A stretch of 64,000 nucleotides of DNA from Edaphobacter sp. (GCA_035656355.1 DASRSR010000194.1:2691-66690), one strand, 5' to 3'. Shown: positions 4,185-60,529, numbered from the stretch's first letter. Notes: a model not told the origin generated them from the letters alone. Made by a program: numbers and translations.

Positions 4185-4245
4185 AGAGAGCAGAGAATAC
4201 ATCTGAAGTGGGAATAGCATCTAAAGTCGCTTTGTTAACAAGTTA

Positions 4246-4427
4246 TTTACGGCATGGCTGACGAAAGTGCTGAAAAGTCTGTTCGGACTGAGGAGCGTAC
4301 TTCAGGGGCTAAAGCCCCATTGCAAACAGTCACTTCGGCATCCTTCGACTTTGCTCAGGACAGGCTTTAAAGCCGTGCCCTTAACAAATCTAGATTTTTC
4401 CGCACTCTTGAAGCCATGCCCTTAACG
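4246..4427. repeat. Nested REP/MITE composite (family A palindrome split by a TIR-bounded unit that holds further REP units)
   Basis: Outer TTTACGGCATGGCTGA...AAGCCATGCCCTTAAC; imperfect TIRs at 4264-4280 and 4392-4408; inner CAGGGGCTAAAGCCCC and CCTTCGACTTTGCTCAGGACAGGCT. Confidence 0.8.
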
Positions 4428-4452
4428 AAAGTCGATTTAAAAGAAAAGTCCC

Positions 4453-27159: not shown

Positions 27160-27264
27160 CGTTGTTTCTATAAGTTCATTATATCAATCGAGTCAAGCGT
27201 GGCGAATAGGAACCAGATTAAAGACAAGAAATCAGGAGTGCCTGTTGAAGGCCTCGAATGCACC

Positions 27265-27328
27265 CTCAGGGGCTAAAGCCCCATTTTAGGCAACAACTTT
27301 ACGGCACGGCTGAAGCCGTGCCCTTAAC
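27265..27328. repeat. REP-like repeat, family A
   Basis: CTCAGGGGCTAAAGCCCC...TTTACGGCACGGCTGAAGCCGTGCCCTTAAC; also at about 4303, 38442 and 54987. Confidence 0.85.
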
Positions 27329-27348
27329 CAGGGGGCTTCATTTATAGA

Positions 27349-33221: not shown

Positions 33222-33427
33222 TTTCTGCCTCCGGAGGTATGGGGATGGGGAGCAAGCTTGCAGTCACCAAAGCGGGCCCGGTTACGACAGAGTTAGCAGG
33301 TTATGAGATTCGGAAATCATAGGGGCAAATAAGAAATTTGTCAGCAACTTTGTTTGCGATGGCGCGAGGACAGGATGTCCGGAATTTGGGCTAGAGTAGT
33401 GGGTTATTTGTTTGTGAAAGAACAGCC

Positions 33428-33507
33428 GCAGATCCTTCCCTTCGACTTTGCTCAGGGCAGGCTCTTCGTTTGGCCAGAAACGGGCCAAACTCCGCTCAGG
33501 ATGACAA
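33428..33507. repeat. REP-like repeat (family C, ending CGCTCAGGATGAC) with a nested 25-nt unit
   Basis: GCAGATCCTT[C]CCTTCGACTTTGCTCAGGGCAGGCT CTTCGTTTGG..CCAAACTCCGCTCAGGATGACAA. Confidence 0.75.
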
Positions 33508-38221: not shown

Positions 38222-38380
38222 GCCCCATTCATCGCGGCGATGGAGTTGGTGTGATGAATGGGGGACCCAGCATTCGAGATGAGTTGAAGAAAAATACAGG
38301 GTTCCTTCGACTTCGCGCTACGCGCTTCGCTCAGGATGACGTGAGTTGAAGTTGTGAGTGGGCACAGGCCTTCGGCCCTA
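38222..38380. repeat. Cluster of REP-like repeats (families B, C and E fragments)
   Basis: CCCCATTCATCGCG..GATGAATGGGG; CCTTCGACTTCGCG..CGCTCAGGATGAC; GGCCTTCGGCCCT. Confidence 0.7.
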
Positions 38381-38415
38381 AGATAAAAAACACGCCACTG
38401 CAAGATGCGTTGGCT

Positions 38416-38533
38416 CTAGGGAAGCTCTGATTAAGTATTCCCTCAGGGGCTAAAGCCCGGTTCAAGTTGGGTGCTTTACGGCGTGGCTGAAGCCACGCCC
38501 CTTCAAAACAAAGACTTATTAGAGTCTCCCTAG
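38416..38533. mobile_element. 110-bp MITE with IS5-like ends and CTAG target duplication, carrying a family A REP
   Basis: CTAG|GGAAGCTCTGATTAAGT...ACTTATTAGAGTCTCC|CTAG. Confidence 0.65.
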
Positions 38534-53839: not shown

Positions 53840-54037
53840 GCGCGCTTTCAGCGCTTGTACTTGTATAGGTTAGTCCCTGGGGTTTCGCGCCATTGGCGCT
53901 TACGGCTGTACTGGTTTGGTGGTTTGTTCATTCCCACCCATCGCGACGATGATGCTGTCGCGATGAATGGGGCATCCGGGCAGGAGTGGGATTAAAGACC
54001 AATGCAGATCCTCCCGCCTTCGGCGGAAAGATGACAA
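53840..54037. repeat. REP cluster (families E, B and C)
   Basis: CGCGCTTTCAGCGCT; CCCACCCATCGCGACGATGATGCTGTCGCGATGAATGGGGCATCCGG (53933-53979); GCAGATCCTCC..AAGATGACAA (54004-54037). Confidence 0.75.
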
Positions 54038-54075
54038 CAAAAAGAGAGTAAGTCTTCCCGTTTAGTAGCGGAGAG

Positions 54076-54830: not shown

Positions 54831-55051
54831 GCGCGCTTTCAGCGCTTCGATTGGTGCGGTGTCGTGTACCTGGGGCTGCGCCCCAGGCTGGTATAAAACG
54901 GGCCTTCGGCCCTAAAAGACGAGCAAATATCTGTCAGGAAAATTGCTCAATGGAATTGAAAAAGCGTCGGTCAGTAAGAACTGTTCCTCAGGGGCTAAAG
55001 CCCCATTGGTTTTTCTCCTGGCTGCGGCACGGCTGAAGCCGTGCCCTTAAC
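54831..55051. repeat. REP cluster (families E and A)
   Basis: GCGCGCTTTCAGCGCT..CCTGGGGCTGCGCCCCAGG..GGGCCTTCGGCCCT; CTCAGGGGCTAAAGCCCC..CGGCACGGCTGAAGCCGTGCCCTTAAC. Confidence 0.8.
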
Positions 55052-55204
55052 GAGAGATGTAAGTGAGACGTTAATGCCTATAGCTCAGGTCGCTGGGCTA
55101 GGTGTTCTTAACGAGAGGGGCTCAAGCAAAACATTAGTGGCACGGCTGAATTGAAAGCTGTAAAGCACCAAACTTTTCAATATCGCTAAAACGAGGAGGA
55201 TTGA

Positions 55205-57886: not shown

Positions 57887-60529
57887 ATGCCTCTGTACTG
57901 CGATGTTGCGCTGCCGGTTTCTTTGGACCAGACATTTACCTATGCGGTGAATGGAGTGGTTCCAGCGGTTGGCGCGCGTGTGCTGGTGCCGTTCAGCGGG
58001 CAGCGGCTGATGGGCGTTGTGCTGCGTGTGCATGACGATACGCCGAACGAGTCGTTTGAGATAAAGCCGGTTCAGCAGGTACTGGATGACGCGGCGCTGT
58101 TGCCGGATGAATTGACGGAACTGGCGCGCTGGATTGCGGCGTACTATGTGGCTCCGCTGGGTGAGGTGCTGCGCGGGATGCTGCCGCTTGGCGCTGAGGT
58201 GAAGCGGCACTTCGTCTACAGGATTTCCGATGTTGGCCGGCGCGTTCTTTATGAAGGCGCGGCGAAGGGAGCTTCGCGGCGGTCGAAGTTGTCTGCAGAG
58301 GAGCAGAACCGCGAATATGCGGTGCTGAATTATCTGGAGACCGGAGATACCGCGAAGATGTCGGCGCTGCGCTCGGCAACGGGAGCGAATAAGACGCTAT
58401 TGGAAGGCATGGTCCGGAAGAAATGGCTGACGCGCGAGGCGGTGGCCGAGGAGCGGGATGCGCGGCGGCTGGAGAAGGTGGCCGTCATTCAGGGAACAGG
58501 AAGCAGGGAACAGGGAACAGAAGAACAAAAACACGACCTCCGCTTGGCGAAGGATGACAAGTCAAAATCCGGCTCTCTGGGGCCGCGATTGCCGAAGCTG
58601 AATGAGAATCAGTTGGCGATTATGGGGGAGCTTGCGGCGGTGGGTGGACGGATGCGCGTGCGCGATCTTCGGCAGACGTTGACGTCTGTGCCGGAGTCCA
58701 CGTTGGCGACGCTGGTGAAACGTGGGTTGGTAGCGATTGAGGAGGTTGCGCGCGAGTTCTGGATGGGGGGAGTAGGTGTGGAGGAAGATGTCGGCTCTGC
58801 CCACCTTAGCGACGATGAAGCCATCGCGAAGATGGGGTATCCGGTGCACCGTCTTCGGAAAAAGCATGCGCATGAGCACGCATTGAATGAGGCCCAGATG
58901 GAGGCGCTGAGCACGATTGCGGCGGCGATGTCGAAGAGCGGGTTTGCGCCACATCTGCTGTATGGCGTGACGGGTTCGGGCAAGACGACGGTTTATTTTG
59001 CAGCGATGCAGCGGGCGCTTGAGGCAGGCAAATCGGCTTTATTGCTGGTGCCGGAGATCGGACTGACTCCCGCGATGACAGGACAATTGGTCGCGGCGTT
59101 TGGCGGTGAGGTGGCATTGCTGCATTCGCAACTGACACCGGATGAGCGTGCCGAACAGTGGCACAGGATTCGGCGGGGCGAGGCACGCGTTGTGGTTGGG
59201 ACGCGGTCGGCTGTGTTTGCGCCAATGCCGAAGCTGGGATTGATCATCGTCGATGAAGAGCACGATGGAAGCTATAAGCAGGAGGAGACTCCGCGCTATC
59301 ACGGGCGTGATGTCGCGGTGATGCGGGCTAAGCTGAACAATGCTGTTGTTGTGCTGGGTTCGGCAACGCCCTCGCTTGAGAGCTGGGCGAACGCGGAGAA
59401 GGGCCGTTATGTGCGAGTGGAGATGCGGCAGCGAGTTGCGGACCGTCCATTGCCGGCGGTAGAGCTTGTGGATATGCGCGAGGAGTTTCGAGAGACGGGG
59501 CAGGAGCATATCTTTTCGCGCAGATTGATTGAGGAGACGCAGGCGACGCTGGACCGCGGAGAGCAGGCGATTGTTCTGCTGAACCGGCGCGGATACTCGT
59601 TTGTGGTGATGTGCCGAAGCTGCGGCGCGAAGATTGAGTGTGAAAACTGTGCGATCTCGATGACGTATCACAAGCCGGTGAGCGGCAATGACGCCATCGC
59701 GCAGCCGGGGCAGCGGCTGGAGTGCCATTATTGCGGGTACAGACGCGGAGTGCCGAAGAACTGTCCGAAGTGCGGGAGTGAGCATTTGTATTTTCTCGGC
59801 GCAGGTTCGCAGCAGGGCGAAGAGCGGCTGCAGGAGATATTTCCTTCAGCACGCATCGGTCGCATGGACCGCGATACTGTGCGTGGACGCAGCGATATGG
59901 AACGTTTGCTGTCGCGGCTCCATGCGGGCGAGATTAATCTGCTGGTTGGAACACAGATGATCGCCAAAGGACACGATATTCACGGGGTGACTCTGGTGGG
60001 TGTTGTCGGAGCTGACTTCGCACTCGGACTGCCAGATTTTCGCGCGGCGGAGAGAGTGTTTCAACTTTTGACGCAGGTTTCAGGCAGAGCGGGCAGAGGT
60101 GAGCTGCCGGGTAAGGTGCTGGTGCAGACCTATCATCCGGACCACTATGCGATTCAGTTTGCAGCGAAGCATGATTATCCGGGGTTTGTCGCGAAGGAGA
60201 CACAGTACCGGCGATGGATGCACTATCCTCCGTATTCCGTGCTGGCGAATGTGTTGATCCAGAGTGAGAAGCTGGAGGAAGCGACGGGATGGTCGGCAGC
60301 GCTGGGGGGGTGGTTTGAGCGGGCACGACTGGACAAGGTCCGCGTGCTTGGCCCAGCGGCTGCGCCAATTTCAAGACTGAAGCGAATTTATCGCTACCAC
60401 TTTGTGCTGAAGGCGGAGCGCAGACAGACGCTCAGCGAAGTATTGCGTGCAATGCTGCAATACGCGGAGACACAGGGCATTGCACGCCGCAATCTGATTG
60501 TCGACGTTGATGCCGTACATCTGATGTGA
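57887..60529 (+). CDS. priA: Primosomal protein N' (replication restart helicase)
   Basis: FTYAV, GARVLVPF, GVTGSGKT, DEEHDGSYKQ, Cys-rich Zn motifs, GTQMIAKG, QVSGRAGRG. Confidence 0.96.
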   Translation: MPLYCDVALPVSLDQTFTYAVNGVVPAVGARVLVPFSGQRLMGVVLRVHDDTPNESFEIKPVQQVLDDAALLPDELTELARWIAAYYVAPLGEVLRGMLPLGAEVKRHFVYRISDVGRRVLYEGAAKGASRRSKLSAEEQNREYAVLNYLETGDTAKMSALRSATGANKTLLEGMVRKKWLTREAVAEERDARRLEKVAVIQGTGSREQGTEEQKHDLRLAKDDKSKSGSLGPRLPKLNENQLAIMGELAAVGGRMRVRDLRQTLTSVPESTLATLVKRGLVAIEEVAREFWMGGVGVEEDVGSAHLSDDEAIAKMGYPVHRLRKKHAHEHALNEAQMEALSTIAAAMSKSGFAPHLLYGVTGSGKTTVYFAAMQRALEAGKSALLLVPEIGLTPAMTGQLVAAFGGEVALLHSQLTPDERAEQWHRIRRGEARVVVGTRSAVFAPMPKLGLIIVDEEHDGSYKQEETPRYHGRDVAVMRAKLNNAVVVLGSATPSLESWANAEKGRYVRVEMRQRVADRPLPAVELVDMREEFRETGQEHIFSRRLIEETQATLDRGEQAIVLLNRRGYSFVVMCRSCGAKIECENCAISMTYHKPVSGNDAIAQPGQRLECHYCGYRRGVPKNCPKCGSEHLYFLGAGSQQGEERLQEIFPSARIGRMDRDTVRGRSDMERLLSRLHAGEINLLVGTQMIAKGHDIHGVTLVGVVGADFALGLPDFRAAERVFQLLTQVSGRAGRGELPGKVLVQTYHPDHYAIQFAAKHDYPGFVAKETQYRRWMHYPPYSVLANVLIQSEKLEEATGWSAALGGWFERARLDKVRVLGPAAAPISRLKRIYRYHFVLKAERRQTLSEVLRAMLQYAETQGIARRNLIVDVDAVHLM
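58490..58560 (+). repeat. In-frame heptamer tandem plus family C REP remnant inside priA
   Basis: CAGGGAA CAGGAAG CAGGGAA CAGGGAA, then CCTCCGCTTGGCGAAGGATGACAA. Confidence 0.65.
58800..58844 (+). repeat. In-frame family B REP palindrome inside priA
   Basis: CCCACCTTAGCGACGATGAAGCCATCGCGAAGATGGGGTATCCGG; about 38/47 identical by hand to intergenic 53933-53979. Confidence 0.8.

Follow-up and report, generated by a model that had tools for sequence, protein, structure and literature searches.

In-frame copies of repetitive extragenic palindromes (REPs) inside genes are known from free-living bacteria, where the GTAG and CGTC families have been described (Di Nocera et al. 2013, PMC3733652). The parts of that report drawn on here list DNA synthesis and repair genes as frequent hosts (uvrA, uvrB, dnaE, dnaE2, ligase and helicase genes), argue that intragenic REPs are neutral in modular proteins, report tyrosine transposases (TIRYTs) specific to Acidobacteria, and cite the Rickettsia palindromic elements (RPE) of Ogata et al. 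Here we describe an insert in priA, the gene of the replication-restart helicase PriA, on a 64,000-nucleotide stretch of DNA from Edaphobacter sp. (DASRSR010000194.1:2691-66690; this whole stretch is called the window, and all positions are counted in it). The insert very probably consists of a degenerate array of 7-nt units next to the remnant of a REP-like element of a family that we call REP-C.

Heptamer arrays have precedents of their own. G-rich heptameric simple sequence repeats (SSRs), GGGAATC in Xanthomonas and GGGGA(T/C)T in Nostoc, are reported to form quadruplexes, to number usually about four units, to vary between relatives, and to lie between genes, being under-represented in coding sequence (Rehm et al. 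2015, PMC4692102). The same paper cites work on heptameric SSRs that are over-represented (Mrazek et al. 2007) and on repeated heptanucleotides in Calothrix. Phase-variable SSRs occur in host-adapted bacteria, for example the heptanucleotide repeats at HMW1A of Haemophilus (PMC8262952). As for the host protein, a review by Windgassen et al. (PMC5778457) describes the winged-helix (WH) domain of PriA as held loosely by its linkers, and notes that E. coli PriA keeps almost full function when it is split at residue 154/157.

The insert at the first variable site of priA (site 1) stands in place of about 12 nt, or about four codons (VVDA), of an empty site found in other genes (Table 1). It is in frame and stop-free, and every domain downstream of it is intact. 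It opens with a heptamer array in which three units are exact CAGGGAA, one has two changes (CAGGAAG) and the fifth is degenerate (CAGAAGA). Downstream of the array comes ACAAAAACACGA and then CCTCCGCTTGGCGAAGGATGACAA, which ends at 58560, and the tract is translated as QGTGSREQGTEEQKHDLRLAKDDK. The original prediction, made from the window alone, had reported four CAGGGAA-type heptamers followed by a REP-like tail at 58490-58560 with this same translation; all of this is present, together with the fifth unit. Among the 32 residues encoded by the insert, 13 are charged, 15 are polar or small and 4 are hydrophobic.

Periodicity of the array was measured by matches at a lag of 7 nt, a statistic used in place of Tandem Repeats Finder, which at score 30 did not report so short and degenerate a tract. 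Of 28 possible lag-7 matches, the 35-nt tract has 21, a score reached by one of 63,965 windows of the same length in the 64 kb, namely the tract itself. The two-unit pattern CAGGGAACAGGGAA, allowing up to two mismatches, was found four times, with 0.51 matches expected. Because the lag-7 score is unique in the window and the two-unit pattern exceeds its expectation, the periodicity is not due to chance. No Rfam family covers either the heptamer array or REP-C. The priA sequence belongs to a metagenome assembly with a depth of about 6x, and a Logan contig, the product of a second assembler on the same sample, agrees with 58200-59000 without any difference (the reads are the same, hence this is no independent data).

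We conclude that 58490-58585 is, with good confidence, a fossil compound insert made of two unrelated repeat parts lying side by side. The copy in the window is a fossil: its heptamers are interrupted, with at most two perfect units adjoining each other, the hairpin of its REP is gone, and it has diverged faster than the rest of the gene. Identity to the orthologue L081 is 72% within the insert and 83.5% across the remainder of the gene.

REP-C elements have the layout GCAGATCC...variable hairpin...CGCTCAGGATGACAA. The 5' part is (G)CAGATCC/GGTCCTTCGAC, a variable and usually palindromic inner segment follows, the 3' part is CTTCGCTCAGGATGACAA, and the element ends in ...CGCTCAGGATGACA; short forms of about 30 nt are without the inner palindrome. 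Apart from the three intergenic copies of Table 1, of which the one at 54002-54039 has a 5-bp hairpin, the window holds a partial copy at about 4340-4366, and at least 10 of the other genomes that we fetched have intergenic copies. REP-C was kept out of the GTAG and CGTC super-families because it bears no consistent tag of either kind (CTAC precedes CGCTC in L012, L025 and at 38294-38342, and is absent from L037, L044, L083 and 33427-33507).

A sequence-only model, R1, was trained on six intergenic copies of the short form, five of which came from other genomes; its E-values are rough. In the 64-kb window the priA segment 58537-58560 was its fourth-best match (11 bits, rough E 0.035), behind three intergenic copies. 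The tail had been predicted to resemble 54004-54037 and the element end at 33507, and R1 recovered both of these as well as the segment in priA. The shared 9-mer RGATGACAA, with four matches against 1.1 expected, is unconvincing alone. We assign the tail to REP-C because the orthologous insert in relatives has a canonical element, and this is the decisive support. Intergenic REP-C copies have visibly palindromic inner segments. The predicted fold of the priA remnant (minimum free energy -3.4 kcal/mol, z -0.6) is no better than that of shuffled sequence, and for the full copy in L083 a 7-bp stem was predicted in a fold that is not significant (z -1.3; 19 of 200 shuffles as good). In four soil metagenome runs no contig matched the REP-C remnant at 85% or more and there was no extra depth over it, whereas the heptamers and 58800-58844 attracted many contigs. 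Because of this lack of extra depth we consider the remnant to be without close copies.

We aligned 110 full-length Edaphobacter-like orthologues as protein, eleven of them also at the DNA level, and for a more distant comparison 80 species representatives, other Terriglobia among them, with MAFFT. Site 1 is empty in 31 of the 110 and in most outgroup Terriglobia, reading ...EKVAVLV-VDA-RLPKLNENQ, with the form VAVLVVDARLPK; in L087 the DNA of the empty site is GTGCTGGTG-GTGGATGCA-CGGCTGCCGAAG. The other 79 orthologues are occupied by heptamer arrays, full REP-C, a third type of repeat that reads SCQLSVVSCQ...LRTEN, or unclassified sequence. Because the empty site is present in these 31 and in most outgroups, the insert is the derived state. 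In run X4 a soil relative jumps over 58483-58589 and has empty-site sequence there, and in run X2 a relative that is about 94% identical keeps the heptamers and lacks 58521-58582.

The closest comparisons concern L081 (product P0004) and its sister L083 (P0007), which are 91% identical in DNA overall and identical in their first 180 nt. L081 has five heptamers followed by ACAAAAGCAGGTTGCTCGTCTCGCTCAGGATGACAATTCAAAATTGAGTCGCTTG; its insert contains ...CGCTCAGGATGACAATTCAAAAT, and its short REP-C GCAGGTTGCTCGTCTCGCTCAGGATGACAA is orthologous to the remnant in the window, which can be aligned to it along its full length. L083 has no heptamers and instead a full REP-C, CGCAGATCCTTCGACTGCACCGGTCGCGATGGGGCCACGACCGGCTCCGCTCAGGATGACAA (CGCAGATCCTTCGAC...hairpin...CCGCTCAGGATGACAA), in the same place and with the same 3' flank. 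Between these sisters the 5' half of the insert has been swapped outright and the 3' 45 nt have been retained, which, from the sequences, looks like gene conversion from another REP-C copy. L082 has heptamers only at site 1.

These alignments bear on several claims of the original prediction. Its repeat-derived in-frame insertion is borne out by the empty-site orthologues and by the match of the inserted DNA to two dispersed kinds of repeat; the family C REP end that it named is seen in L081 and, as the full canonical element, in L083. The region is not conserved at the protein level in orthologues without the repeats. It had also held this insert to be independent of a first one at 58800-58844 (site 2), and the three nearest relatives indeed have the site-1 insert and an empty site 2.

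In a protein tree of the 110 orthologues, built with both variable sites removed, the window groups with P0008 (heptamers only), P0004 (heptamers and short REP-C) and P0007 (full REP-C) with 99% support. This clade shares site-1 inserts, and the insert is therefore older than the group and was later partly deleted or overwritten. When the occupants were classed as empty, heptamer, REP-C, SCQLSVVSCQ...LRTEN or others, the class changed at least 32 times on the gene tree; occupancy itself changed at least 7 times, with empty sites nested among occupied ones. Unrelated palindromic repeats occupy site 1 in distant Terriglobia: CCCATGTCTG...CAGACATGGG in L002, CCCACTCATTCGC...GCGAATGAGTGGG in L020 and L051, and GGAGACGGGGC...GCCCCGTCTC in L025. 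L026, a distant Terriglobales genome, has REP-C at the same priA site in a different reading frame (SFDS...SLRMT). At least five unrelated families are thus found at the same junction, across up to order-level divergence.

The heptamers are a dispersed repeat, as shown by the jump in metagenome depth over their bases: contig depth over 58470-58523 climbs from 6.4 to 75-210 in run X1 and to 130-507 in run X4. An exact search for (CAGGGAA)3 found at least 120 metagenome contigs with a GC content of 33-75%, and among the matches listed the arrays were mostly intergenic or outside long open reading frames (ORFs), often adjoining other heptamer arrays. By this analysis (CAGGGAA)n fits the G-rich heptameric SSR class of the Xanthomonas and Nostoc type. 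The array encodes the heptapeptide QGTGNRE in all three sense frames, and all six frames are open. It is also read in frame as QGTGNREQGT in three other housekeeping genes on metagenome contigs, tgt (L089), trpE (L112) and mnmG/gidA (L155), with Pfam domains intact on either side. In L155, mnmG also contains a degenerate array (QGTGTRDQGT) ahead of this one. Four inverted pairs of arrays were found among the 120 array-bearing loci listed; at L193 4406-4487 there is an intergenic hairpin whose arms are heptamer arrays, (CAGGGAA)4-18 nt-(TTCCCTG)4.

Two larger arrangements were considered for the heptamers and set aside. One was that they form an integral arm of REP-C, that is, a composite element. 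At the 120 metagenome loci listed, REP-C ends within 150 nt of arrays occurred at 0.19 per kb against 0.12, which is no enrichment, and the presence of either part alone in relatives (heptamers without REP-C, REP-C without heptamers) also counts against it. The other was that arrays flank a cassette encoding a PF05635 (IVS-protein) product. For the CAGGGAA type this is unsupported, since none of 87 small ORFs (95-150 codons) within 250 nt of such arrays at the 120 loci listed matched PF05635.

The number of units at site 1 varies among orthologues. L084 has four perfect CAGGGAA and L082 four degenerate units; L081, L209 and L210 have five, L088 eight and L211 two; L085 has (GGGCTTA)3 with (CAGGGAT)4, and L086 and L058 have GGGCTTA-type units. 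By sequence, at least four tracts of G3-4, as a candidate quadruplex needs, are found in L084 and L210 (four perfect units each) and in L088 (GGG in 7 of 8 units). The array in the window, with GGG in three units, GG in one and no tract in the fifth, has three G3 tracts left, and a quadruplex reading of it was dropped.

Differences of three units were seen between genes with flanks 87-99% identical, and two close pairs are comparable. L088 and L209, with flanks 95-99% identical, have eight and five units, and L210 and L211 have five and two; each is a three-unit step of 21 nt or 7 amino acids. In the window, adding or removing one or two units brings stops at residues 219-243, ahead of the helicase core. 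Out-of-frame alleles were absent from all 110 full-length orthologues and from the contigs of the four runs. The suggestion that slippage in the heptamers could shift the frame is thus correct on paper, and it is unlikely to matter in an array with two adjacent perfect units and with three-unit variants in relatives. A working frameshift switch in the priA of the window is unlikely.

Residues 100-340 were modelled as a fragment with AlphaFold. In this model both insert sites (residues 199-231 and 295-324) have a predicted local distance difference test score (pLDDT) below 50 and no secondary structure. Between them, residues 240-288 are predicted to form a helix-strand-helix-helix-strand module (pLDDT 91-94). 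Sub-threshold Pfam hints for this module were MarR_2 (E 0.03) and a winged-helix domain of unknown function (E 0.08), and no significant match in the PDB emerged from a Foldseek search with the fragment model (best E 2). Among the orthologues site 1 spans 2-55 residues, with 30 lengths and 78 distinct sequences, and site 2, about 70 residues downstream, spans 3-32 residues; metagenome depth climbs to 40-47 at site 2. These two are the large length-variable sites of PriA; elsewhere in the protein, four variable spots cover no more than 10 residues each. The linker had been called a tolerant sink for repeats, and the large length variation at both linkers, with unrelated palindromic repeats in distant Terriglobia, supports this strongly and more widely than was claimed.

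Two observations concern site 2. Residues at about 289-296 (58760-58800) co-vary with its state, reading REFWMGG(V/L) with any insert and (E/D)DFH(L/M)GG when the site is empty; this could reflect a shared recombining allele, or these codons could be part of the inserted DNA. In addition, the site-2 REP SAHLSDDEA(I/V)AKMG(Y/H)P is common to the window and to P0002 and P0003, which belong to a different clade, and not to the three nearest relatives of the window. Either the same repeat was inserted repeatedly in the same frame, or the linker allele was transferred by recombination.

The anatomy and orthology of the insert, the recurrent occupancy of its site, the three-unit steps and the lack of predicted structure are most probably explained by selfish or neutral repeats that are tolerated in a permissive PriA linker, the array changing by slippage and being filtered by the reading frame. 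A (CAGGGAA)n simple-sequence array and, immediately downstream, a short REP-C copy, both stop-free and polar-coding, would have added about 28 disordered residues to the linker between the conserved WH domain and the second WH-like module, and these residues would be at least nearly neutral for the helicase. The insert would predate the split of the window organism from its three nearest known relatives and would have decayed since. Growth and shrinkage of the array most likely occur by replication slippage; changes of three units alone would survive, any other change truncating PriA ahead of the helicase core. Insertions elsewhere in priA would be purged, whereas in the linker they would persist, be overwritten and be lost again.

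Several points weigh against this explanation. The assignment of the window's own remnant to REP-C is marginally significant alone (E about 0.035) and rests on the orthologues. The tree was made with FastTree, and recombination between lineages would inflate the number of changes; the insert types ('hept', 'REPc', 'LRTEN') were called with protein regular expressions and checked in DNA for about a dozen genes. The change counts are approximate, and the recurrent turnover itself is robust. Length alleles were judged on assembled contigs of the four runs, which cannot reveal rare variants, and slippage is a mechanism that we infer. Residues 240-288 look like a second winged helix from their modelled topology and the sub-threshold Pfam hints, which the fold search did not confirm, and the full-length AlphaFold model (mean pLDDT 50) was too poor for use. 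Finally, neutrality is likewise something we infer, and occupation of 79 of 110 orthologues could mean that a longer linker is favoured.

In that last case selection would act for a longer, flexible and charged tether between the two winged-helix modules, with repeats as handy raw material and the insert as a functional spacer. Such an adaptive extension would suit the high occupancy, the always polar and stop-free occupants and the retention of inserts across species-level divergence in the clade of the window. We nevertheless regard it as unlikely: 31 orthologues and most other Terriglobia manage with a connection of 4-5 residues, the range of lengths and sequences at site 1 points to no preference for either, the insert is diverging faster than the gene, and whole parts are present or absent between close relatives. 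Still less credible is a contingency locus, in which slippage of the 7-nt units toggles priA by phase variation and produces a subpopulation that is mutator-like or tolerant of stress. A unit of seven is not divisible by three, so that gain or loss of one or two units would stop translation before the helicase core, copy number varies between relatives, and L084 and L210 have four perfect units. On the other hand the window array is interrupted, all 110 full-length orthologues are in frame, the two comparable close pairs differ by exactly three units, and loss of PriA is severely deleterious in the bacteria studied (PMC5778457); we give this idea very little weight. Next to inconceivable are an artefact, in the form of an assembly chimera, and an ancestral linker that the short-form orthologues have lost. 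Repeats are prone to misassembly and the depth was about 6x, yet the second assembler gave an identical sequence and orthologous inserts occur in independent samples (L081, L082 and L083). Against an ancestral linker, outgroup genera have the short form, and the short forms resemble one another (LVVDA, LVEDA, LVPDA), as expected of an ancestor and not of repeated precise deletions.

Inserts might also recur at one place because a transposase or a repair process recognises a sequence or structure of priA, which would direct repeats to this junction. At least five unrelated families share exactly this junction across lineages whose divergence reaches order level, and all inserts begin after GTG GCN GTN NTN and finish before CGN CTG CCN. 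Yet site 2 behaves alike, and both sites are inter-domain linkers, as selection alone predicts; the heptamer array is in frame in tgt, trpE and mnmG without a shared flank; the junctions show neither a target-site duplication nor a conserved target motif; and one target would have to serve families with different likely mechanisms (SSR and palindromic elements). A targeted landing pad is very unlikely on these grounds. A broader proposal, that the linker between the WH modules of acidobacterial PriA is more than a passive sink and actively acquires repeat DNA, by writing or by capture, also seems quite improbable to us. In one version a process with a 7-nt register would lay heptamer arrays at tolerant spots of priA, tgt, trpE and mnmG; this process might belong to the replisome or to a pathway for repair or restart, PriA itself acting at stalled forks, and REP-like elements would be drawn to the same lesion-prone DNA. 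Where a lineage has at least four intact GGGAACA units, the sense strand, putatively able to form a quadruplex, could in turn influence priA expression.

Table 1. Positions of the parts of the priA insert, of related REP-C copies and of neighbouring features in the window.
Feature	Position	Strand	Basis or remarks
priA, replication-restart helicase, 880 residues	57887..60529	+	ORF, Pfam, alignment to Klebsiella PriA 4NL4
Whole site-1 insert, 96 nt, 32 codons, Q202-P233	58490..58585	+	DNA alignment with empty-site L087 and insert-bearing orthologues
Degenerate G-rich heptamer array, reads QGTGSREQGTEE	58490..58524	+	CAGGGAA, CAGGAAG, CAGGGAA, CAGGGAA, CAGAAGA
A-rich spacer ACAAAA from array to REP remnant, common to L081	58525..58530	+	Window GAACAAAAACACGA, L081 GAACAAAAGCAGGT
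Decayed short-form REP-C remnant ACACGACCTCCGCTTGGCGAAGGATGACAA, 30 bases, reads HDLRLAKDDK	58531..58560	+	Model R1, orthology
3' flank of ancestral insert GTCAAAATCCGGCTCTCTGGGGCCG, reads SKSGSLGP	58561..58585	+	Homologous to TTCAAAATTGAGTCGCTTG(A/C)GG of L081 and L083
Extra winged-helix-like module (predicted), residues 240-288, absent from enterobacterial PriA	58604..58750	+	Fragment AlphaFold model
Site 2, second variable linker, first in-frame REP insert, about 70 residues downstream of site 1	58800..58844	+	Length variation among orthologues
Full-length intergenic REP-C, GCAGATCCTTCCCTTCGAC...CTCCGCTCAGGATGACAA	33427..33507	+	R1 matches 33427-33444 (5' end) and 33490-33507 (3' end)
Intergenic REP-C, medium form, GGTTCCTTCGACTTCGCGCTACGCGCTTCGCTCAGGATGAC, within a cluster of other repeats	38294..38342	+	R1 match 38323-38340, E 0.004
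Intergenic REP-C, short-form variant ATGCAGATCCTCCCGCCTTCGGCGGAAAGATGACAACA	54002..54039	+	R1 21 bits, E 2e-5; this copy is itself among the R1 training rows

From its sequence the host gene product is PriA, with the 3' DNA-binding domain (3'BD), helicase, cysteine-rich region and C-terminal domain in the expected architecture. Pfam matches above threshold were PriA_3primeBD (residues 6-100), DEAD/ResIII (331-498), Helicase_C and PriA_C (782-875); Zn_ribbon_PriA scored 25.0 bits in the Cys-rich zinc region, slightly below the Pfam cut-off of 26 bits. Klebsiella and E. coli PriA are the best solved relatives (E about 1e-120). The alignment to the Klebsiella structure 4NL4 (E 5e-122) covers residues 6-197 and 333-877, and residues 198-332 have no counterpart in it. 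Homologues of the product in public data come from soil Edaphobacter-like Acidobacteriaceae. Some PriA homologues on long contigs are short: P0035 (650 residues, on a 4.83-Mb contig), P0032, P0080 and P0061 have 650-720 residues and are without Pfam matches to the C-terminal domain. These may be truncated or frameshifted genes, or their ends may be miscalled.

Elsewhere in the window, other short intergenic repeats form clusters at 38224-38463, 4238-4430, 27261-27331 and 54983-55150. Their families (CAGGGGCTAAAGCCCC, CGGCACGGCTGAAGCCGTGCCCTTAAC and CCCATTCATCGCG...GATGAATGGGG) recur at gene ends. The Rfam motif Acido-Lenti-1 RNA was matched at 54869-54913 on the + strand (44.8 bits against a gathering score of 37); about 290 nt downstream of it is a gene for a Gfo/Idh/MocA oxidoreductase with a twin-arginine translocation (Tat) signal (55205). 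The motif likewise lies upstream of the orthologous oxidoreductase gene in L083 (1184-1228, 42.3 bits).

The priA insert is real and is most probably a rather ordinary example of selfish DNA in a protein linker; it combines two known kinds with recurrent occupancy and involves no new mechanism. In-frame selfish repeats are already known in Rickettsia and a few free-living bacteria, so that a single case in priA changes little. The value of the locus is as a natural experiment, in which heptamer arrays and several palindromic families have colonised a single linker of an essential-type helicase, and this linker has changed state dozens of times in a genus-level group, always in frame. It provides a map of the positions in PriA that tolerate any sequence, of use in tagging and engineering, and a documented intragenic 7-nt repeat that evolves in three-unit steps alone. 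It is also a warning for annotation and phylogenetics that such segments, though in the same place, are not homologous across orthologues. Finally, the range of G-rich heptamer repeats, described until now between genes in Xanthomonas and Nostoc, is extended to Acidobacteria and to coding sequence.

Compared with intragenic REPs and the RPE, as far as the parts of PMC3733652 drawn on here describe them, the priA insert is alike in that a short dispersed palindromic family, apparently intergenic as a rule, lies in frame in a functional gene and is translated as an extra loop. It differs from intragenic REPs in that REP-C has no consistent GTAG or CGTC tag, that the window copy is a short form that has decayed and lost its hairpin, and that it adjoins a heptamer array. 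Moreover, the priA site has been struck repeatedly by several families across an order, hotspot behaviour that those parts of the paper do not describe. Like the SSRs of Rehm et al. (PMC4692102), (CAGGGAA)n arrays are tandems of 7-nt units, each unit bearing one G3-4 tract; they too typically number about four, vary extensively in length and sequence between close relatives and are dispersed over genomes, and by sequence (GGGAACA)4 would match the G3N4 quadruplex pattern. The priA array differs from those SSRs in being translated inside an essential-type gene and in changing by three-unit steps, in its unit (CAGGGAA/GGGAACA) and acidobacterial host, and, for the window copy with its three G3 tracts, in not being a canonical quadruplex motif.

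Contingency SSRs of the HMW1A type (PMC8262952) likewise have a unit that is not a multiple of three and a copy number that varies. In contrast to them, the priA tract is short and interrupted, its host is a housekeeping helicase, and in-frame three-unit variants alone were seen. The comparison with split E. coli PriA (PMC5778457) concerns the protein. In both, the region past the 3'BD/WH is loosely tethered and takes drastic change; the E. coli case is a laboratory suppressor, whereas in acidobacterial priA natural repeats lie before a module that enterobacterial PriA lacks.

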